Shown here: positions 1-8,240 of the stretch, in pieces | How positions within the stretch are numbered: the stretch's first letter is position 1 | Layout of the letters: every line of letters starts with the position of its first letter | Assembly (NCBI GenBank): GCA_024275415.1 | Contig: JAJRZD010000090.1 | Span: forward strand, 1-8,240 | Direction of reading: 5' to 3' | Source of the DNA: an archaeon | Lineage (GTDB): Archaea > Asgardarchaeota > Thorarchaeia > Thorarchaeales > Thorarchaeaceae | DNA length: 8,240 nucleotides | Made by a program: the position numbers and the translations under genes | The notes under the pieces: model-generated | The model's input: only the letters and a program-made list of their open reading frames with translations | Told to the model about the DNA's origin: nothing | Databases searched by the model: none

Positions 1-104
1 AAACCAGTTGGAGGATGGCAATTCGAGGGCATCTCCCCATAACGCATTTTGTGAGAACGTTCATAGGGCAAGGCTTATGTCGTATCTATTAACAATGGTT
101 ATCT

Positions 105-1085
105 ATGGAATATGTACAACTGGGAGCGTCTGGCTTGCGTATCTCCAGATTTGTTCTGGGTACCATGCAGATGGGCTGGATCATTGATGAGAAAACGAGT
201 CACAGAGTGCTTGATGCAGCCCTTGAAGCAGGGATAATGACTATCGATACGGCAGACATCTATAGCAAGTGGGGCGAGGGATCACACTCTGGTAAATCTG
301 AGGAGATTATAGGCAGATGGCTTAGCGGTCGCGGAACGCGAGAGGAGATAGTGTTGGCGACAAAAGTAAGAGGGGACATGAGTGAACGACCGAATGATGT
401 TGGACTTTCTCGGAAGCATATCATCGCGTCGATAGCAAAGAGTTGTGACAGGTTGCAAACTGAATTCATAGATCTTTACTGGAGCCATTGGCCTGATGAG
501 GAAGTCAGTCAAGAAGAAACGCTCAGGGCATTCAACAAACTTGTTGATGACGGAATAGTACATTACATCGGCGCATCGAATCATACGGCTGCCGAACTGG
601 TCGAATCATTGTGGATGAGTGATAGATACGGGCTGGGACGATATGTTGCAATCCAGATACCATATAGTCTTGCAAGGCGAAGGGACTATGAGAAGCATCT
701 CCTACCAGTTGTGAAAAAGTACAAGTTTGGCGTGACGAGTTATAGTCCACTTGGAGGGGGATTTCTTACTGGGAAATATACGGAGGACAAGCTTCCAGAC
801 TCGAAGAGAGCAGAAACGACCAAGGCAAGGTATTTCAAGAATCGGAACTTCAAGATTGTCGATGTTCTAAAGGAAGTGGCGTCGCGAAATGATTGCACTC
901 TCCCACAAGCAGCACTGGCATGGGTCCTTTCGAAAGAAACAATCACAGCACCGATAATCGGAGTGAATTCCGTGGAGCAGCTTGAGCAGAATCTACTTGC
1001 ACTGGAACTAAATCTGCCAGATGATGACCTGAAGATGCTTGACGAGGTATCGGATTGGGAGGATATGGACTTCATCGCTCGATAG
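105..1085 (+). CDS. Aldo/keto reductase (NAD(P)H-dependent; YajO/Tas/Kv-beta-like AKR), 326 aa
   Basis: AKR motifs in order: LGTMQMG, IDTADIYS (catalytic Asp/Tyr), LATKV (Lys), IDLYWSHWPD (His), IGASN, YSPLGGGFLTGKY, PIIGVNSVEQLEQNL. Confidence 0.96.
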   Translation: MEYVQLGASGLRISRFVLGTMQMGWIIDEKTSHRVLDAALEAGIMTIDTADIYSKWGEGSHSGKSEEIIGRWLSGRGTREEIVLATKVRGDMSERPNDVGLSRKHIIASIAKSCDRLQTEFIDLYWSHWPDEEVSQEETLRAFNKLVDDGIVHYIGASNHTAAELVESLWMSDRYGLGRYVAIQIPYSLARRRDYEKHLLPVVKKYKFGVTSYSPLGGGFLTGKYTEDKLPDSKRAETTKARYFKNRNFKIVDVLKEVASRNDCTLPQAALAWVLSKETITAPIIGVNSVEQLEQNLLALELNLPDDDLKMLDEVSDWEDMDFIAR

Positions 1086-1118
1086 ACACTGTTTTCGAAA
1101 ATTCGAACAGTTTGTCTA
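1083..1118 (+). terminator. Stem-loop directly after the AKR stop codon (possible terminator or processing hairpin)
   Basis: TAGACA(1083-1088)+CTGTT(1089-1093) pair with AACAG(1106-1110)+TGTCTA(1113-1118), with a 2-nt bulge and a 12-nt loop. No strong U-tract follows. Confidence 0.4.
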
Positions 1119-1183
1119 ATCAAGAAAGCTTCTTTAATCTCTCGCAGGGTGTATGGTACAGACATACTGACAGGGGACGCAAT

Positions 1184-1876
1184 ATGCGCACGGTGCTGAA
1201 GCTTGGTGGGTCACTCCTTTACGATGCTGCTGACGAAGTGATGATTGATCGTATCAAAGAGTATGCGGATACGATTGCAGACCTTACAAAACACGGCCAT
1301 CAGTTTGCTATCGTTGTGGGGGGAGGAAGACCTGCAAGGAAGTTCATTGCTGCAGCTAGGGAGCTGGGAGCAAGTGAGGCACAGTGTGATTGGCTCGGGA
1401 TTAAGATTGCACGCCATAATGCCGAGCTATTGTCCGCAGCGCTAGGGAACGTTGCGTATCCGAGAATCGCAGAAACACTGGATGAGCTCGAAATCGCTTC
1501 ATGCACAGGAAGGGTCGTCCTGATGGGAGGCCTGACTCCTGGGCAGTCCACAAATGCCGTTGCTGCATTGGCTGCGGAATCGATTCACGCAGAATTGCTT
1601 CTCAATGCAACCAATGTGGACGGTGTCTACGATCGTGATCCTAAGGAGTCCGGTGCGAAACGGTTCGATTCAATACACATCTCGGATCTCAAGGAGGTTC
1701 TTTCAGGAGGGGGCACTAAAGCGGGCGAGTATAAGCTCTTTGATCCAGTTGCACTCAGGGTGGTCGAACGTTCCAAGCTCAAAACCGTCATATTCGATGG
1801 AAGGAAACCCGATAACATTCGGAAATTGATGGACGGGGAACAGATTGGGACAATAATCACACATGAGATGTCTTGA
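1184..1876 (+). CDS. pyrH: Uridylate (UMP) kinase, archaeal type, 230 aa
   Basis: Motifs VLKLGGS, IVVGGG, MGGLTPGQSTNAVAALAAE, ATNVDGVYDRDPK, LFDPVALRVVERS. Start moved from 1055 to ATG 1184 because the family begins at the KLGGS strand and a TTTAAT TATA-like element lies at 1133-1138. Confidence 0.96.
   Translation: MRTVLKLGGSLLYDAADEVMIDRIKEYADTIADLTKHGHQFAIVVGGGRPARKFIAAARELGASEAQCDWLGIKIARHNAELLSAALGNVAYPRIAETLDELEIASCTGRVVLMGGLTPGQSTNAVAALAAESIHAELLLNATNVDGVYDRDPKESGAKRFDSIHISDLKEVLSGGGTKAGEYKLFDPVALRVVERSKLKTVIFDGRKPDNIRKLMDGEQIGTIITHEMS
1804..1830 (+). repeat. Direct repeat copy 1 (inside the pyrH 3' end) of a 27-bp sequence repeated at 3303-3329
   Basis: GAAACCCGATAACATTCGGAAATTGAT vs GAAACCTGATAACATTCGGAAATTGAT: 26/27 identical, last 20 nt exact. 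Confidence 0.92.
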
Positions 1877-1893
1877 CGACGGGGGTTGCTTGA

Positions 1894-2196
1894 ATGGAAG
1901 AATTGCTAGAACAGATTTTCTCATCGCGTGCACAAACAAGAGTCATACAACACTTTCTTGACAGACCAAAAGAGTTCTTCAACTTGAGCAGGATAGCAAA
2001 AGAAACCAAGCTTGCTCATTCAACTATCCATAGGGTGATGCAACCTCTTGTCGACATGAGATTGATAAAAGAAATCAAAGTGGGACAGCAGATCAGGTTG
2101 TTCATCCTAGAAACCGAGGATGACAAGTCAAAAGTCCTTGCCGAGTTCTACGAGAAAATCAAACCTCTTCTAAGGGAGATGCGAGCCCATCAATAG
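1894..2196 (+). CDS. Small winged helix-turn-helix protein (ArsR-like; resembles archaeal stand-alone or MNT-associated wHTH), 100 aa
   Basis: IFSSRAQTRVIQHF-x-NLSRIAKETKLAHSTIHRVMQPLVDMRLIKEIKVGQQIRLF fits the wHTH helix/wing pattern. Starts 17 nt after the pyrH stop, behind a G-rich SD-like run. Confidence 0.8.
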   Translation: MEELLEQIFSSRAQTRVIQHFLDRPKEFFNLSRIAKETKLAHSTIHRVMQPLVDMRLIKEIKVGQQIRLFILETEDDKSKVLAEFYEKIKPLLREMRAHQ

Positions 2197-2202
2197 CGAC
2201 CA

Positions 2203-2991
2203 CTAATCATCTTGGAAAAACTCAACCAGCAGTCGGTTCAGACGCTCGGGCATCTGAACACCTGGACTATGACCACAATCTGGAAGTGTAACCAGTTTTG
2301 AGTTTGGGATTAGACCGGCTGCCTCTCTGGCCAGAGAAACATCGAAAATCCGGTCCTTTTCGCCATGAATAATCAGAGTTGGGACATTGATTTCATGTAA
2401 ACGTTCCTCAGCATTGAACATCGATAAGCCTAGTCCTGCAGCTAAAACGCCTTCTGCATTGAGAAGGTTCTCCTTGTTCATCAAATGGTCTATGACCTCC
2501 TTGTTCTGGTCGATGAAATCCTCCGGGTAGCAGCTCTTTATTGACGCCCAGAAATATGCCTCATCGCCGCCTTCAACTTGAGCTTCCCTCCAACCATAGA
2601 CCTCATCGACTACCTCCTCTGTGATCTTTGGCCCAGTGGATATCAGAACCAGCTTCTTGACCCGCTCAGAGAAGTCAAGAACGAATTGCTGTGCTATGAT
2701 ACCGCCCATAGAGGTGCCAGCTACCGAAACCTCATCAATCCCTATGTGATCAAGAAAGGCATTCAAATCGCGGGCGAATATTTCTGCCGTGACTACATCC
2801 ATCCCAGGTCCGGTGGAATGGCCGTGACCACGTTGGTCAAGCAAGATGACCTTGAAGTGTTCAGAGAGAGAACCTTCCTGAAACTCCCAGCCGCTCATAT
2901 CACTTCCCAGTCCATGAATAAGTAACACAGAGTCCCCCTCACCCAGAATTTTGTATTTGAGAGTGATGTCATCCAGCGCGACTTCGTTCAT
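2203..2991 (-). CDS. Alpha/beta-fold hydrolase (PcaD/MhpC-like esterase or enol-lactonase), about 262 aa
   Basis: HGLG oxyanion loop, DQRGHGHS, nucleophile elbow GTSMGG, acid in IIHGEKD, catalytic His in DCGH. Start placed at ATG 2991 (MNEV...), because a TTTAAG TATA-like box on the minus strand at about 3028-3033 overlaps the longer 3027 start. Confidence 0.93.
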   Translation of the reverse strand: MNEVALDDITLKYKILGEGDSVLLIHGLGSDMSGWEFQEGSLSEHFKVILLDQRGHGHSTGPGMDVVTAEIFARDLNAFLDHIGIDEVSVAGTSMGGIIAQQFVLDFSERVKKLVLISTGPKITEEVVDEVYGWREAQVEGGDEAYFWASIKSCYPEDFIDQNKEVIDHLMNKENLLNAEGVLAAGLGLSMFNAEERLHEINVPTLIIHGEKDRIFDVSLAREAAGLIPNSKLVTLPDCGHSPGVQMPERLNRLLVEFFQDD

Positions 2992-3071
2992 GTTCAAACA
3001 CCAAAAAACGACATGATTCCGTACCAACTTAAAGATACTCGGGACGTAAACGATAGACGGGCAACAGAGCC

Positions 3072-3086
3072 AAAACGGCTATATTG
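3072..3086 (+). promoter_or_regulatory. Putative BRE/TATA promoter of the tRNA
   Basis: AAAACGG-CTATATTG about 30-44 nt upstream of tRNA G1. A similar AAACGG...CTATATTT element precedes the 3542 gene. Confidence 0.4.
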
Positions 3087-3153
3087 GATTTGAATAGAAA
3101 TCAGATAGTAAAAGTGCCGAGATAGCCAAGCGGTCAACGGCGGTGGACTCAAG

Positions 3154-3191
3154 ATCGCGTATCAACTACATCGCTAGACCTGCGAGGAGGT
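3154..3191 (+). other. tRNA intron 1, canonical 37/38 position, 38 nt, relaxed BHB
   Basis: Central helix C32-U33-C34-A35 with GGAG (3 Watson-Crick pairs plus an A.G mismatch). Bulges A36-G37-A and G-U-A38. Inner helix TCGC(3155-3158)/GCGA(3182-3185). Confidence 0.88.
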
Positions 3192-3221
3192 ATCCACTCT
3201 CGTAGGAGTTCATGGGTTCGA

Positions 3222-3251
3222 ACAGCTATGCATTTCGCATAACTGGAGCAA
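3222..3251 (+). other. tRNA intron 2, non-canonical 58/59 (T-loop) position, 30 nt
   Basis: Central helix G53-U54-U55-C56 with GAGC(3246-3249). Three-nt bulges GAA(3220-3222) and AAA(3250-3252). Inner hairpin CAG-C-TATGC/GCATA-A-CTG. Removal restores T-loop TTCGAAT. Confidence 0.85.
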
Positions 3252-3272
3252 ATCCCATTCTCGGCACCAACC

Positions 3273-3281
3273 TCTTTTTCT
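3273..3281 (+). terminator. Oligo-T tract after the tRNA (archaeal-type terminator)
   Basis: TCTTTTTCT begins 4 nt after the CCA end. Confidence 0.55.
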
Positions 3282-3302
3282 AAAGCGTAAATGCAAGAGT
3301 AC

Positions 3303-3329
3303 GAAACCTGATAACATTCGGAAATTGAT
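3303..3329 (+). repeat. Direct repeat copy 2: isolated pyrH 3' fragment downstream of the tRNA
   Basis: Matches 1804-1830 at 26/27 nt. The flanks diverge at once on both sides. Confidence 0.92.
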
Positions 3330-3541
3330 CTACATCACACGCGCATTAGAGTGGCAGATACCGGATATGTGTGGAAAGTCCAACCGGAGGTCATAAAATC
3401 GATGGTGGTCGAGGTGTTGGAGTTCTGACACGCAATCATTCGTGCTGATTTCAAACAGAAACCACAAGTTTACTTTTCACACAACGCCGCAGATACCAGA
3501 GAGATAATAAACGGATACTATATTTCAAAGAGAGAGATACG

Positions 3542-3760
3542 ATGAACAAAAGAGCAGTTTCAGGTATTGTACTTTCAATTGTCATCTTCACAATCTGGAT
3601 AGTGATTGACATAGTCTTCTTCCCTTCGATTATAGGATCATTAGGATATCCAGTCTTCGAGATTGTAGCCTATGGCTCATGGTTTATGATAATGTTGATA
3701 CTATTGGCCATACTGTCGGTGACAAGAGCCATCCCTACTCGGTTCTTATCTGAGCGATGA
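3542..3760 (+). CDS. Small hypothetical membrane protein (2 predicted TM helices), 72 aa
   Basis: Basic N-terminus (MNKR) and two long hydrophobic stretches. TATA-like CTATATTT lies about 20-25 nt upstream of the ATG. Confidence 0.72.
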   Translation: MNKRAVSGIVLSIVIFTIWIVIDIVFFPSIIGSLGYPVFEIVAYGSWFMIMLILLAILSVTRAIPTRFLSER

Positions 3761-3877
3761 CATGACAGAATCCTGTGATCAATCATGTTCTTGGCATTGC
3801 AATGTGAGATGACCCATCATACGCGTGGTAAGGAACTATTTATATCGGAGTTGCACAATAGCACAGACTGAGAGATA

Positions 3878-4399
3878 TTGCCGTTCACACCATTCCACTT
3901 CGGTCCTGCATTGCTTACCGGAGTTCTGCTTTTCCCATTCATTGATCTTGTAGCAATCATGGTTTCCAGTGTGATTCTTGACATCGAACCATTCCTTGTG
4001 TTGTTCCTCAGACTACAGGCGCCACTACATGGACTCTCACACACCTATCTTGTCGCAACAATTGTTGCCATCCTTACTGCTGGTGTCCTTTGGCTATTAC
4101 GAACGCCAATCACTGACATCGCGTCCATGTTTGGTGTGACACAGGAACCGAGCAAACAGGGCATTTTTCTCGCCTGTCTTTTTGGAACCTATTCGCATGT
4201 CCTCATGGACTCGTTCATCTACGCCGAGATGAATCCTTTCTTCCCCATCGTAGGAAATCCATTTCTTGGGCTTGTTGCAGTTGCAGTGATCTATCAGTTC
4301 TGTTTGTACAGTGGCATCGTCGGGTTCCTGCTCTATTTCATCAGGTTCTACATCATAGGGAAAAGGCCCGGTTCAGATGTCGTGGATCCATTCCAATAA
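3878..4399 (+). CDS. Membrane-bound metal-dependent hydrolase-like protein (YdjM/DUF457-like), 173 aa, TTG start
   Basis: N-terminal MPFTPFHFGP, D in VILDIEP, HGLSHT and SHVLMD His/Asp motifs, several TM segments. An in-frame stop at 3869 forces the TTG start. TTTATA box at about 3839-3844. Confidence 0.8.
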   Translation: MPFTPFHFGPALLTGVLLFPFIDLVAIMVSSVILDIEPFLVLFLRLQAPLHGLSHTYLVATIVAILTAGVLWLLRTPITDIASMFGVTQEPSKQGIFLACLFGTYSHVLMDSFIYAEMNPFFPIVGNPFLGLVAVAVIYQFCLYSGIVGFLLYFIRFYIIGKRPGSDVVDPFQ

Positions 4400-4467
4400 T
4401 GAACGTACTCTATTCGAAAGGATTTCGGACTCTCACACTATCAACCATTTCTTGCACACCTAGTAAT

Positions 4468-4515
4468 ACTTATAAGTGTATGTCATACTATACTATGTAA
4501 TGCATAGTGCAGTAT
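4468..4515 (+). promoter_or_regulatory. padR promoter: TATA box followed by a 31-bp imperfect palindrome (putative PadR operator)
   Basis: ACTTATAAGT at 4468-4477, then ATACT-AT-ACTATG-TAATG-CATAGT-GC-AGTAT at 4485-4515. 11 of 13 arm positions are complementary about axis 4500, where the transcription start is expected. Confidence 0.72.
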
Positions 4516-4540
4516 ATCACATGATGAGGTGTATTACAAG

Positions 4541-4588
4541 ATGAAAACTATTCGAGAAAACTACAATTTTACAGGTGACGGGTCATGA
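4541..4588 (+). other. Possible 15-aa leader mini-ORF (MKTIRENYNFTGDGS) coupled to padR by an ATGA overlap
   Basis: SD-like GAGGTG at 4526-4531. Its stop TGA (4586-4588) overlaps the padR ATG (4585-4587). Confidence 0.3.
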
Positions 4589-4953
4589 CACCGAAGTCAA
4601 GCAAGGCTCTTGAAGAATTCGAACGTTGGAGCAAGGAAGTGAAGCGGGGTGCAGCCTCGCTGGCAATCCTAGCTGTGCTTGATGAGCGGGAAGCGTATGG
4701 CTACGAAATTGTGCAGCAGCTGAGCTTCAAGGTATCATTTCTACAGCTTGAGCAGGGGACAGTGTACCCATTGCTTCGAAGACTAGAACAGCGCGGGCTC
4801 TTGAACAGTAGATGGGATCAAGCAGATCCTGCAAAGCCCAAGAAATACTACCATCTCACACAGGATGGGAAGAATGCCTTGGGCATGATGATGGAAACAT
4901 GGTCTGTACTATCAGAGGAGATGAAAAAACTAAGCAAAGGAGTTGAATACTAG
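4585..4953 (+). CDS. PadR-family transcriptional regulator (short subfamily-2 type), 122 aa
   Basis: KRGAASLAILAVL, AYGYEIVQQL, GTVYPLLRRLEQRGLL, KKYYHLTQDGK. SD AGGTGA at 4573-4578. Confidence 0.95.
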   Translation: MTPKSSKALEEFERWSKEVKRGAASLAILAVLDEREAYGYEIVQQLSFKVSFLQLEQGTVYPLLRRLEQRGLLNSRWDQADPAKPKKYYHLTQDGKNALGMMMETWSVLSEEMKKLSKGVEY

Positions 4954-6036
4954 ATGACTGACAAACCTATCGATTTGATTGAGAAATACTTGGAACGAGT
5001 GCGGGTATATCTGCCGTTGGGAAGCGAGGAAATCCTTACAGAAATCAGGACACACCTCATTGAAGAAGCTGAGAATCTTGGACAGGGACAGGTTACCCAT
5101 GGTTCTGCAATGCTAGCAGTTGAACGATTTGGCGATCCGAAAGATGCAGCTAATGAGTGGGCGGGAACTGGGAAAAAGGTCGGCCCAGTGCCTGCAGAAT
5201 ATGCTATACCACTGGTCAAGATAACACTGACACTGATTGCACTGGGAGCCGTATTCATTGTGGGTGCATCTATCGTGAATTATGCGGCGCCAGAGATATG
5301 GGGGATAATTAACTTTCCATTGAGCATCGGAATAATGGTAGTGATATCGCTCATCTATGCATTCATGATTATTGGAGGCCTGTCTTACATAGATAGCAGA
5401 GGAAAACCTCCTACTGAGATGACAACATTAGAAAGTGTGCTTGGTGTTGCAAGTGGTGCGTTCAAGCCGAAACCAAGAGTGGATGCCGCAGGAGGCTTCT
5501 TCTTCGGGTTGGTATTTGCGATAGTGATTGCATCCCCATTTGTTCGAAATGCTCTAACGGCTGAAGCTCTCCTTTTCGTCAACGTCTTTGTCGGTCTTAT
5601 GGTGGTAGAAGCATTTGTGAACTTGATGTTCTATCTGTTCGGTGAGAATAATGTGAACCTCTTGTTGCAGGCAATAATGAGTGGCGCATGGATTGTGCTG
5701 TCCATGTTCCTGATCAATCTGGCGTTCCCGTTAAATGGCTTCTACAAGTACTCAAGCTCTGTAGGTTGGACTTTCATGACCTTTGAAGAACTGTTTCAAA
5801 CGTTCCCCGAACTTGGAACCTACTTGCCTCTGAACTTGGTTTGGGTCTTCATAGTCTTCGTGATTGTCATAACCAATCTCTGGAATGCATTGGTTGCATC
5901 CATGAAGATCCCCATGTACTTGCAGGCTGGAAAAGGTTGGTGGTGGAAAGGAGGATGGGGCGAGAAGAGATGGAAGCGATACCGAAGCCCAGACAGGAAG
6001 AAATCTAGAGAAAGAAACATTGCAAGTAATTACTAG
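4954..6036 (+). CDS. Multi-pass membrane protein with N-terminal HAAS / permease-prefix-like helical domain (PadR partner), 360 aa
   Basis: IEKYLERVRVYL...EIRTHLIEEAE...AVERFGDPKDAANE matches the HAAS-type pattern. About 6 hydrophobic helices. ATG abuts the padR stop (TAGATG), with SD AGGAG at 4938-4942. Confidence 0.82.
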   Translation: MTDKPIDLIEKYLERVRVYLPLGSEEILTEIRTHLIEEAENLGQGQVTHGSAMLAVERFGDPKDAANEWAGTGKKVGPVPAEYAIPLVKITLTLIALGAVFIVGASIVNYAAPEIWGIINFPLSIGIMVVISLIYAFMIIGGLSYIDSRGKPPTEMTTLESVLGVASGAFKPKPRVDAAGGFFFGLVFAIVIASPFVRNALTAEALLFVNVFVGLMVVEAFVNLMFYLFGENNVNLLLQAIMSGAWIVLSMFLINLAFPLNGFYKYSSSVGWTFMTFEELFQTFPELGTYLPLNLVWVFIVFVIVITNLWNALVASMKIPMYLQAGKGWWWKGGWGEKRWKRYRSPDRKKSRERNIASNY

Positions 6037-6043
6037 ATGATAC

Positions 6044-6074
6044 AGGAGCGGATACCGCTCCTTGCATTCTTTTT
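6044..6074 (+). terminator. Hairpin + U-tract terminator of the padR operon
   Basis: AGGAGCGG-ATA-CCGCTCCT (perfect 8-bp stem) followed by TGCATTCTTTTT, starting 8 nt after the stop. Confidence 0.72.
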
Positions 6075-6220
6075 AATTATCACGACCTGCCCGGATGACA
6101 CTTGTATTGGTGGCTGAAAACTGTAAATGAAGAGTAATGAAGCTTCATAAAACGTCTAGAGTTATTTTACGGATTATGAAAGCCTTCTTGGGCCGGAGTT
6201 CAACAATCTTCTTAACGCTT

Positions 6221-6232
6221 GTTATATATAAC
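6221..6232 (+). promoter_or_regulatory. Palindromic TATA box of the surface-protein gene
   Basis: GTTATATATAAC (perfect 12-bp palindrome) ends 28 nt before ATG 6260. SD AGGTGA at 6250-6255. Confidence 0.62.
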
Positions 6233-6259
6233 TTGACGGAGAGCATCATAGGTGATTCA

Positions 6260-7321
6260 ATGCAGAAGCGTGCTATGATCAACAAAGCGCTCCTTGTGAT
6301 GTTGCTATTCTTACTGGTGTCGTCGATGGCGACTGTCAACGCTCAAACTACGGGCGATGACGACGATGACAATGAAGGCGATGATACGACAACAACCGAG
6401 GACGATAGTGGAAACGACGATGAAGACGACGACCCGAACGAACGACAAGTAGAAGTCGAAGTGACAGCGACGAGTGCACTGATAAAGTCAAAGCTGGAAT
6501 CAGGTGCGAACGAACATGTCTTCAAAGTGGAAGTCCAAGTTGGATTGAATGGGCTCGAGTTCAAGGTTTCCTATGAAGAGGAAAATGCAACGACAGAAAC
6601 TGAACGCGAGTTCGAAGTTCGGTTCTCCAAGCTTGTCGAGTTCGCTGATTCCAATGGTGATGGCGTCTATGATAATGAAGTTGATTCTGCAATCCAGACG
6701 ATAGATCTTTCAAGTTTTGAACCAATTCAATATACGGTCAAGAATGGAACCAACGGTCAGTTACACATCTTTGATGTTTCAACGACTGATGGGGTGTTCC
6801 TCTCAAGGTTGTATGCGAGTGGACAGTTCACAGATGTTAACGGCTCGGTTGTCGCTCCAAATGAGGTCAAGATCGATGTGATAATTCGTGACTTCAATTT
6901 TACAGAGAGTGATTCTTATCTTGCGCTGAAAGTCAAGCTCGAATCCTCAACCGAAACCGAGTTCGAGCATGAAACCGAAGACGAGCAGGAAGGGAGAGCT
7001 GAGAACGAAGCAGGAGTCGAAGTGATGACAAGTGACTACCCAGGCTTCTTCTCGTGGAAAGAAACGGCAAAGATTGATGGTGTGACCTATCCGGTGAATG
7101 CTAGCATTGACGAAATCAGTGCGAATGAACAGGAGATTTACCTGAACTATCGTCAGGGAAGTGAAATCATCCATGACCCCAAGCTTGGCTTCGAAAATGT
7201 CCTGATAGACCCATCTGCACTGCCAATCTTGAACCTCCTAGGCGGTAACAATTTCCTCCTCATCGCAGTCGCGGCTGTTGTCATCGTAGGATTGGTGGTA
7301 GTGGTAAAGAGAAGGACATGA
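6260..7321 (+). CDS. Type I membrane (cell-surface) acidic glycoprotein, 353 aa: signal peptide, Asp/Thr-rich linker, beta-rich domain, C-terminal TM anchor
   Basis: MQKRAMINK + hydrophobic core + NA/QT-like cleavage region. Tract GDDDDDNEGDDTTTTEDDSGNDDEDDD. DxNxDG motif. Five N-x-S/T sequons. C-terminal TM followed by KRRT. Start moved from 6137 to 6260 on SD and TATA evidence. Confidence 0.88.
   Translation: MQKRAMINKALLVMLLFLLVSSMATVNAQTTGDDDDDNEGDDTTTTEDDSGNDDEDDDPNERQVEVEVTATSALIKSKLESGANEHVFKVEVQVGLNGLEFKVSYEEENATTETEREFEVRFSKLVEFADSNGDGVYDNEVDSAIQTIDLSSFEPIQYTVKNGTNGQLHIFDVSTTDGVFLSRLYASGQFTDVNGSVVAPNEVKIDVIIRDFNFTESDSYLALKVKLESSTETEFEHETEDEQEGRAENEAGVEVMTSDYPGFFSWKETAKIDGVTYPVNASIDEISANEQEIYLNYRQGSEIIHDPKLGFENVLIDPSALPILNLLGGNNFLLIAVAAVVIVGLVVVVKRRT
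6348..6443 (+). repeat. Low-complexity GAY/GAR/ACN-rich tract encoding the Asp/Thr-rich linker
   Basis: Runs of GAC/GAT codons (GACGATGACGACGATGAC..., GACGATGAAGACGACGAC). Confidence 0.7.
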
Positions 7322-7334
7322 GCAATCGGTTTCT

Positions 7335-7373
7335 AGTACTTGGGAGCCCTCGCTCCCAAGTGCTTCTTTTTTT
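7335..7373 (+). terminator. Strong hairpin + T7 intrinsic-type terminator between convergent genes
   Basis: ACTTGGGAGC-CCTC-GCTCCCAAGT (perfect 10-bp stem, extendable to 13 bp with one G.U pair) followed by TCTTTTTTT. Confidence 0.8.
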
Positions 7374-7380
7374 CAACGGA

Positions 7381-8240
7381 TTATCCAAGAAGGTTGTTGT
7401 ACAGTCGTTCAAGATTGTCTGCTTTTTCATAGAACCCGTACTTCCGCCATCCAGCAGCGCTGACCTGTAGAATCTTCTTTGCCTGCTCAAGATATTTTGG
7501 ATCCCTCAGACGAGCCCACCCTTTCGATAGAACTCCTATTAATGAGGAGCCTGTCACAGCCACCTCGTAGTCATACTTTTCAGGATCCTGTACAGCCACT
7601 CTGTTCAACGCATTTACAATCTTGATGACTTGTTGCAACTGTGCGTCATCCAGCATGTCAGCTGCAAATGAAGCATGATAAGTTGTGGACATTATGTCGT
7701 CCCTACAGACTATGCCATTGGATATGAACCATTCCTGCACCTCTAAGGACTTGAGTACGCACTTTGAGAAAATCGAATCCCTTGTCGAGCCGGATAACAG
7801 ACTGTAAGAAACTGAGGCAAGTGATGTGAGAATGTTGCCAGCATTTGTCGCATAGGCACTGAGAGATGACTCGCGATAGCGTTCAATCGCATCAAGGTCT
7901 ATTGATTTCATGGCGAGATAATGCAAGAGAACAGCCTCTTTCCGAAACAGACCTGTGCGGGTCAGTACTGTGCCTAGTGCATTGAGAATGACATGGATCG
8001 AGAAGCGAATCGCACTTTTTGCCCATTCGCGCTCGGAAACGCGGATGATGTCCTGAAGAAAGGTTCCAACTCGTGACAGGTGAGCCTTGCGTTCATTTCC
8101 GGTCGTAAGATAATAGTATTCAGCATGTGCCACACCCATGCTCTGAAAGACGCTATCGATGGTATGTGCAAAGAGGGGTAATTCGTCCAGTAGCAAGCGG
8201 CGGAAATATGTCCAATACAGGTCAATGACCTCTGCAAGAA
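7381..8240 (-). CDS. 3' portion of a helical-repeat (TPR-like) protein, 5' end outside the window
   Basis: The frame stays open beyond TTG 8196 to the window edge (...LAEVIDLYWTYFRRLLLDEL...). Amphipathic helices with TPR-like segments (AYATNAGNILTSLA, YLEQAKKILQVSAAGWRKYGFYEKADNLE). No catalytic motif recognised. Confidence 0.7.
   Translation of the reverse strand, partial: LAEVIDLYWTYFRRLLLDELPLFAHTIDSVFQSMGVAHAEYYYLTTGNERKAHLSRVGTFLQDIIRVSEREWAKSAIRFSIHVILNALGTVLTRTGLFRKEAVLLHYLAMKSIDLDAIERYRESSLSAYATNAGNILTSLASVSYSLLSGSTRDSIFSKCVLKSLEVQEWFISNGIVCRDDIMSTTYHASFAADMLDDAQLQQVIKIVNALNRVAVQDPEKYDYEVAVTGSSLIGVLSKGWARLRDPKYLEQAKKILQVSAAGWRKYGFYEKADNLERLYNNLLG

Follow-up and report, generated by a model that had tools for sequence, protein, structure and literature searches.

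A Thorarchaeal type I membrane protein with a GLMP-like ectodomain, from an archaeal family linked to membrane-bound winged helix-turn-helix proteins

Introduction

In the literature, GLMP is treated as a eukaryotic lysosomal protein. It is the accessory subunit of MFSD1, a dipeptide uniporter of the major facilitator superfamily (MFS). GLMP (PF15065; structure 6NYQ, and chain B of 8R8Q together with MFSD1) consists of a signal peptide, a supersandwich ectodomain with multiple N-glycosylation sequons, a C-terminal transmembrane (TM) helix and a short tail. Its contacts with MFSD1 are made by the TM helix and a loop on the luminal side (PMC11252000), and its glycans have been proposed to shield the partner (PMC6819133, PMC11252000). 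Here, we analyzed an 8,240-nucleotide stretch of Thorarchaeal DNA (contig JAJRZD010000090.1, positions 1 to 8,240; hereafter the window), in which the target gene, at 6260..7321 on the plus strand, encodes a 353-residue protein plus stop, P0001, with the same architecture. Unlike GLMP, P0001 is archaeal and is expected at the cell surface instead of the lysosome. It also differs by an Asp/Thr-rich N-terminal linker, a motif resembling a Ca2+-binding loop and an HDPKxG signature. In addition, the P0001 family is multigene with tandem paralogues, and its relatives are fused or linked to winged helix-turn-helix (wHTH) membrane regulators, with no MFS partner seen. In the library of papers that was searched, GLMP or NCU-G1, the Pfam name of PF15065, did not occur together with archaea or Asgard, and a herpesvirus paper that names GLMP had no bearing on the question.

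Other described systems resemble parts of this design. Galactose-mutarotase-like supersandwiches, such as the C-terminal domain of the glycoside hydrolase (GH) family GH38, the N-domains of GH63, GH65 and GH97, the polysaccharide lyases, aldose 1-epimerase and YidC P1, match P0001 more weakly than GLMP does. They are parts of enzymes or of the insertase YidC, whereas P0001 has no attached enzyme domain. Membrane-tethered one-component regulators, including ToxR/CadC and the archaeal HVO_0163-type wHTH proteins, sense outside and bind DNA inside, a logic that the fused relatives of P0001 would share, judging by their sequences. ToxR/CadC proteins carry the DNA-binding domain at the N-terminus and the sensor at the C-terminus, an order that is reversed in the fused relatives. 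P0001 itself, unlike these regulators, has no DNA-binding domain and ends in a tail of four residues. Coral SAARP/CARP4 proteins share with P0001 an Asp-rich disordered segment beside a beta-rich domain, but conservation of this segment is lacking across the archaeal family. For CARP4/SAARP1, the prediction is an Ig/FN3-like beta sandwich of 5+7 strands with D/E-rich disorder around it (preprint 10.64898/2026.03.24.713908).

Results

The ectodomain has the fold of GLMP

A template-free AlphaFold2 model of P0001, built on 25 relatives, places 22 beta strands in the stretch from residue 63 to residue 311, with a predicted local distance difference test score (pLDDT) of 85-97 at residues 60-240 and 260-315. 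These strands form a beta-supersandwich as in 6NYQ. In a Foldseek search against the Protein Data Bank (PDB), the two best matches were both GLMP, 6NYQ_C (E 1e-8) followed by 8R8Q_B (E 2.8e-7), and the sandwiches of GH38, GH63, GH65 and mutarotase came after them, from E 3e-4. GLMP stood 5 to 7 Z units above all other folds in two structure searches. The alignment with 8R8Q_B covers residues 61..353 of the model, including the TM helix. Identity between P0001 and GLMP is only 15%. The sequence and the helices of the model also give P0001 the type I topology, with a signal peptide, a single C-terminal TM helix and a short tail. The preliminary description of this stretch had likened the protein to GLMP/NCU-G1, as a candidate relative from prokaryotes with an identical topology, and the structural comparison, in which GLMP comes first by a wide margin, bears this out.

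The sequence link to GLMP runs through the relatives of P0001. Of all Pfam families, only NCU-G1 (gathering cut-off 27 bits) matches the globular part of the relatives repeatedly, always at profile positions ~51-205. Sub-threshold matches were found in 5/25 sequences of the alignment of relatives (A1), in 9/22 non-Asgard sequences (A3) and in 2/45 Asgard sequences of the HDPKxG group (A4), and the best match among the 22 non-Asgard relatives reached 3.1e-6. Scanning 400 Asgard genomes with PF15065 gave collinear matches in open reading frames (ORFs) of 320-450 residues, one of which (L001, genome G047) exceeds the cut-off, scoring 28.4 bits when the genomes were scanned and 28.7 bits when taken as a protein. 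This ORF matches P0001 at 2e-31 by BLASTP, and the other ORFs with NCU-G1 matches do so at 7e-39 to 2e-56. Among 201 Thermoplasmatota genomes, one family ORF scored 26.9 bits, or 27.4 with its neighbours in frame. The NCU-G1 match that the preliminary description had put forward as a check is therefore present in relatives, two of them at or near the cut-off, and absent from P0001 itself, which has no Pfam match at E <= 1. The profile link of P0001 is transitive, not direct. Moreover, neither phmmer with P0001 nor hmmsearch with three archaeal family profiles at E <= 10 retrieved a GLMP chain from the PDB sequences, and these searches returned low-complexity acidic matches only. Searches of the ESM Atlas with P0001, whole and named-only, returned unnamed archaeal clusters or nothing.

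These missing matches and the 15% identity would suit a convergent or superfamily-level resemblance, in which the sandwich domains of glycoside hydrolases, lyases or YidC would be just as close to P0001 as GLMP is. Against this stand the distance between GLMP and the other folds in both structure searches, the identical membrane topology, and the fact that a profile built on eukaryotic sequences gives the only recurrent Pfam match, aligns collinearly and exceeds its curated cut-off for two of the archaeal sequences, the Thermoplasmatota one only when its frame neighbours are counted. We regard such a superfamily-level likeness as improbable. Given the fold margin, the identical topology and the one-directional profile link, the ectodomain of P0001 is very likely homologous to the luminal domain of GLMP.

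Anatomy of P0001

All parts named in the preliminary description, namely a signal peptide, a poly-Asp/Thr linker, a beta-rich domain, five sequons, a C-terminal TM helix and a basic tail, are present. The N-terminus, which resembles a Sec-type signal peptide (residues 1-29; 6260..6346, plus strand, as for all features of the gene), has a basic n-region, a hydrophobic core and a VNA/Q end, a pattern conserved in the alignment of relatives, and the model places a helix at residues 3-21. It is followed by a disordered linker (residues 30-59; 6347..6436), recognized by its composition and by pLDDT <50 at residues 22-57. The beta-supersandwich ectodomain spans residues 60-316 (6437..7207). A juxtamembrane linker (residues 317-331; 7208..7252), variable in the alignment and with pLDDT <50 at residues 316-332, leads to the TM helix, a hydrophobic run at residues 332-349 (7253..7306) that is modeled as a helix at 332-352. 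The protein ends in the basic cytoplasmic tail KRRT (7307..7318), and basic tails are conserved among the aligned relatives. P0001 contains no Cys. Its five sequons are N109 (NAT), N162 (NGT), N194 (NGS), N213 (NFT) and N280 (NAS), a number not above chance (composition-matched shuffles 2.9 +/- 1.5, P = 0.15). N194 and N280 are retained in 15/25 aligned relatives and N213 in 10/25. P0001 is probably N-glycosylated.

Residues 30-60 include 14 Asp and 6 Thr out of 31. This acidic stretch, together with the predicted CARP4/SAARP1 sandwich and its flanking acidic disorder, could fit the likeness to coral skeletal proteins raised in the preliminary description, with P0001 as an acidic protein of their kind that binds minerals or cations. 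However, the linker differs in length and sequence among relatives and is absent or very short in many of them, including the paralogues of the same genome and several Heimdall members; therefore it is not a feature of the family. In addition, the 5+7-stranded sandwich of the preprint, which can be likened to P0001 by description only, is much smaller than the 22-strand domain. We consider such a coral-type protein extremely unlikely.

Conserved motifs

Column counts over the 25 sequences of A1 revealed invariant or near-invariant positions at R62, E127, D130, P200, K204, I209, L221, L223, W266 (in GFFSW), D273 and HDPKxG. P0001 belongs to the family by its full-length similarity and by carrying the R62, E127, D130, K204, W266, D273 and HDPKxG columns. 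The sequence blocks listed in the preliminary description (RQVEVEV, FSKLVEFADSN, APNEVKIDVII, SYLALKV and GFFSWKETA) were all found and coincide with the invariant columns. The loop at residues 127-142 (6638..6685) follows the pattern E-[YF]-x-D-x-[ND]-x-[DN]-G-x-Y-...-D and resembles a DxDxDG-type Ca2+-binding loop. Its columns are E127 (25/25), D130 (25/25), N/D132 (22/25), D/N134 (24/25), G135 (22/25), Y137 (22/25) and D142 (21/25), and weak EF-hand matches occur among non-Asgard family members. This pattern suggests that the conserved loop of the ectodomain may bind Ca2+.

The family signature HDPKxG (residues 305-310; 7172..7189) lies in the last beta hairpin of the ectodomain, with H in 23/25, D in 24/25, P in 24/25, K in 25/25 and G in 25/25 sequences. 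A reading of this motif as a sorting signal, LPXTG or archaeosortase-like, was rejected. The motif is inside the folded domain, separated from the TM helix by ~20 variable residues, and the fused forms described below run on past the TM helix. To our knowledge, archaea lack sortase-anchored walls. The Pfam family Gram_pos_anchor matches weakly on the TM helix and basic tail of relatives, and the JGI label of one relative (P0097), 'LPXTG-motif cell wall-anchored protein', is probably a mis-annotation arising from these two features. The Pfam matches of relatives to human cytomegalovirus UL116 and to New_glue were set aside as presumably falling on the low-complexity Thr/Asp-rich linker.

Size and distribution of the family

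A homologue search with P0001 gave 122 matches, down to 1e-26, the closest of them labeled Thorarchaeota. With phmmer against 1.84 billion representatives, 740 clusters matched at E <= 1e-3, of which 385 also pass E <= 1e-10. The family profile matches 258/400 Asgard genomes, representing 62/85 genera, often in several copies and often in tandem. The genome of the window has about six family loci. Scanning 185,579 species genomes for the HDPKxG motif returned 78 loci, all in archaea, from Thor-, Heimdall-, Hod-, Hermod- and Promethearchaeota, Bathyarchaeia, Hadarchaeota, Thermoplasmata, Methanomassiliicoccales and Thermoproteota, and 40/201 Thermoplasmatota genomes have a family match. The family is not restricted to Asgard, and non-Asgard members fit the NCU-G1 profile at least as well as Asgard ones (9/22 versus 2/45). 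The members in Thermoplasmatota, Bathyarchaeia and Hadarchaeota therefore argue against labeling the family an Asgard eukaryotic signature protein, a reading raised in the preliminary description that is weakened accordingly. The relationship to GLMP is not weakened by this broad archaeal spread.

Separately, one paralogue of the same genome (contig 6, 2081-3058; L093) matched in two pieces around an internal TAA and may be a pseudogene or frameshifted. Two loci labeled Heimdallarchaeota (L050) and Thorarchaeota (L059) have near-identical tandem genes (branches 0.03-0.07) in the same gene order, and one label or bin is probably wrong.

Fusions and cassettes with wHTH proteins

Of the 264 relatives fetched, ten have a cytoplasmic extension beyond the TM helix that consists of tandem wHTH domains, HTH_HVO_0163_N followed by HTH_24/ArsR/MarR. 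At 22/78 loci, a family member is accompanied, in the same orientation and at a distance of 41-220 bp, by a gene for a wHTH(DUF7347/HTH_20)-Yip1 polytopic membrane protein. Two gene orders occur among these loci, which come from Heimdall, Hod and Bathyarchaeia. The single wHTH-Yip1 gene of the genome of the window (contig 93, 5005-5796) directly precedes two tandem paralogues of P0001 (cassette 5005-8176; L094, L099). Neither of these has an acidic linker, and both are part of a divergent second subfamily. The best Heimdall matches of P0001 (42-47% identity) sit within cassette loci, and in one of these (L031) the copy matching P0001 immediately follows the wHTH-Yip1 gene. In a quick maximum-likelihood tree, with midpoint root and Shimodaira-Hasegawa-like approximate likelihood ratio test (SH-aLRT) support only, one clade with 98% support holds the Thorarchaeota clade of P0001, the cassette-linked Heimdall and Bathyarchaeia copies and a single clade made up of all the fused forms. 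The other paralogues of the same genome fall in the second subfamily.

The Thermoplasmata loci show another arrangement. In ten of them (L065, L072, L074, L075, L079-L082, L086, L088), a pair of family genes flanks a 91-residue membrane protein with a weak DUF7471 match (E 0.008). These cassettes, often preceded by a secreted protein of 178 or 387 residues without a Pfam family, differ from the Asgard cassette.

Start site, transcription unit and neighbours

The open frame of the target gene spans 6137-7321 on the plus strand and reaches an ATG at 6137, 41 codons ahead of the gene itself. Because 24 aligned relatives have N-termini that line up with the ATG at 6260, the start was placed there. 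With a TATA-like box at 6222..6231 also favoring this start, gene callers may over-extend the gene to 6137. The TATA-like box, TTATATATAA, lies ~30-38 nt upstream of the ATG and would represent an archaeal promoter of its own. In addition, the Shine-Dalgarno-like AGGTGA (6250..6255) ends 5 nt before the ATG, and a hairpin with a 19-nt stem-loop and a T-run (6044..6074), a putative terminator, follows the upstream gene. On these grounds the target gene looks like its own transcription unit, separated from the operon before it. This operon, on the same strand, consists of a PadR gene (PF03551, 1.9e-22; 4585-4953) and an abutting gene for a HAAS-domain multi-pass membrane protein (PF22564, 27.1 bits; 4954-6036) directly upstream of the target.

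Further upstream, an aldo/keto reductase gene (105-1085) belongs to a cluster that recurs in several Thorarchaeota loci, and the genes for a UMP-kinase-like protein of the amino-acid-kinase family (1184-1876) and an alpha/beta hydrolase (2203-3027) have no linkage to the target in related loci. On the minus strand, a convergent ORF of at least 285 residues (7381-8238) runs off the window and has, among Pfam families, only a weak match to the D-glucuronyl C5-epimerase C-terminal domain (E 0.036).

The homology and identical topology with GLMP, and the contact of GLMP with MFSD1 through its TM helix and luminal loop, would suit a transporter accessory subunit that stabilizes an archaeal MFS protein or other solute carrier. 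The MFS partner sought on the basis of the preliminary description did not appear: no MFS or other transporter gene is conserved among the neighbours in the 78 loci, a weak argument since partners need not be linked. The conserved partners are instead wHTH membrane proteins. We consider a role at a transporter very unlikely.

Discussion

We consider it fairly probable that P0001 is a surface protein whose GLMP-like ectodomain serves in extracytoplasmic sensing or as a partner subunit. P0001 would be secreted and held in the membrane by its single C-terminal helix, with the Asp/Thr-rich stretch forming a flexible connection between the signal peptide and the supersandwich domain. In its subfamily, the module of ectodomain and TM helix also occurs in two linked forms, one that runs on into two cytoplasmic wHTH domains and one that adjoins a wHTH-Yip1 gene. 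Through the TM helix and the membrane-proximal part, P0001 may associate with a membrane partner, polytopic or DNA-binding, in a manner similar to that of GLMP with MFSD1. A role in sensing or docking is suggested because three independent observations, the fusions, the wHTH-Yip1 linkage and the cassette in the same genome, tie this module to membrane-bound wHTH proteins. For P0001 itself, a stand-alone copy with its own promoter and no adjacent partner, such a role is put forward only tentatively, by analogy with its relatives.

Several points weigh against our proposal, besides the missing direct matches of P0001 to Pfam families and to GLMP sequences. A shared fold alone shows no function. 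P0001 lacks both a wHTH domain and a neighbouring wHTH-Yip1 gene, and the node uniting its clade with the cassette-linked forms has a support of 90, not 95, in the quick SH-aLRT tree. The upstream PadR-HAAS pair lies next to a family gene in only 3/78 loci, and the padR promoter and the upstream region of the target have no k-mer of 9 or more in common and no dyad.

PadR-HAAS pairs are known as two-gene sensing modules, and one is present upstream of the target, but the hairpin intervenes and the adjacency is rarely kept. A coupling of this pair to the target was rejected on its rarity, the terminator-like hairpin between them and the lack of a common operator element. The adjacency is probably coincidental.

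Lysosomal glycoproteins protect the lysosomal membrane. P0001 could likewise be a passive surface coat, a glycosylated, Ca2+-binding acidic glycoprotein of the envelope or glycocalyx that shields the membrane, with no signaling and no dedicated partner. The stand-alone gene with its own TATA-like box and a terminator upstream, the lack of any conserved neighbour among the Thorarchaeota orthologues, the several paralogues in each genome, and the acidic linker and conserved sequons all fit such a coat, as does the proposed shielding by the glycans of GLMP (PMC6819133, PMC11252000). Yet the wHTH fusions and the conserved wHTH-Yip1 linkage in the subfamily of P0001 speak against it. In addition, the near-invariant surface motifs (HDPKxG, GFFSW and the one resembling a Ca2+-binding loop) point to a specific site of interaction more than to a generic coat. 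We therefore consider a purely passive coat unlikely and prefer sensing or pairing with a membrane partner.

The preliminary description thus holds for the kinship with GLMP, the topology and the sequence features, and falls short in its reading as a eukaryotic signature and in a nearby MFS partner. As a stand-alone paralogue, P0001 is less informative than the cassette copies. It is conceivable, though on present evidence doubtful, that eukaryotic GLMP descends from an ancient archaeal family of surface modules of ectodomain and TM helix that docked onto polytopic partners by the TM helix and the membrane-proximal hairpin, served, in the fused wHTH forms and the wHTH-Yip1 cassettes, as the input device of a kinase-free signaling route from the outside to DNA, and were re-used in eukaryotes as a lysosomal transporter subunit. 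Sharing its fold and topology with a large family in archaea would give GLMP a prokaryotic ancestry, and the members of that family may offer a tractable route to what the supersandwich domain binds. The recurrent fusion and linkage to membrane wHTH proteins, moreover, point to an undescribed coupling of the cell surface to transcription in archaea.
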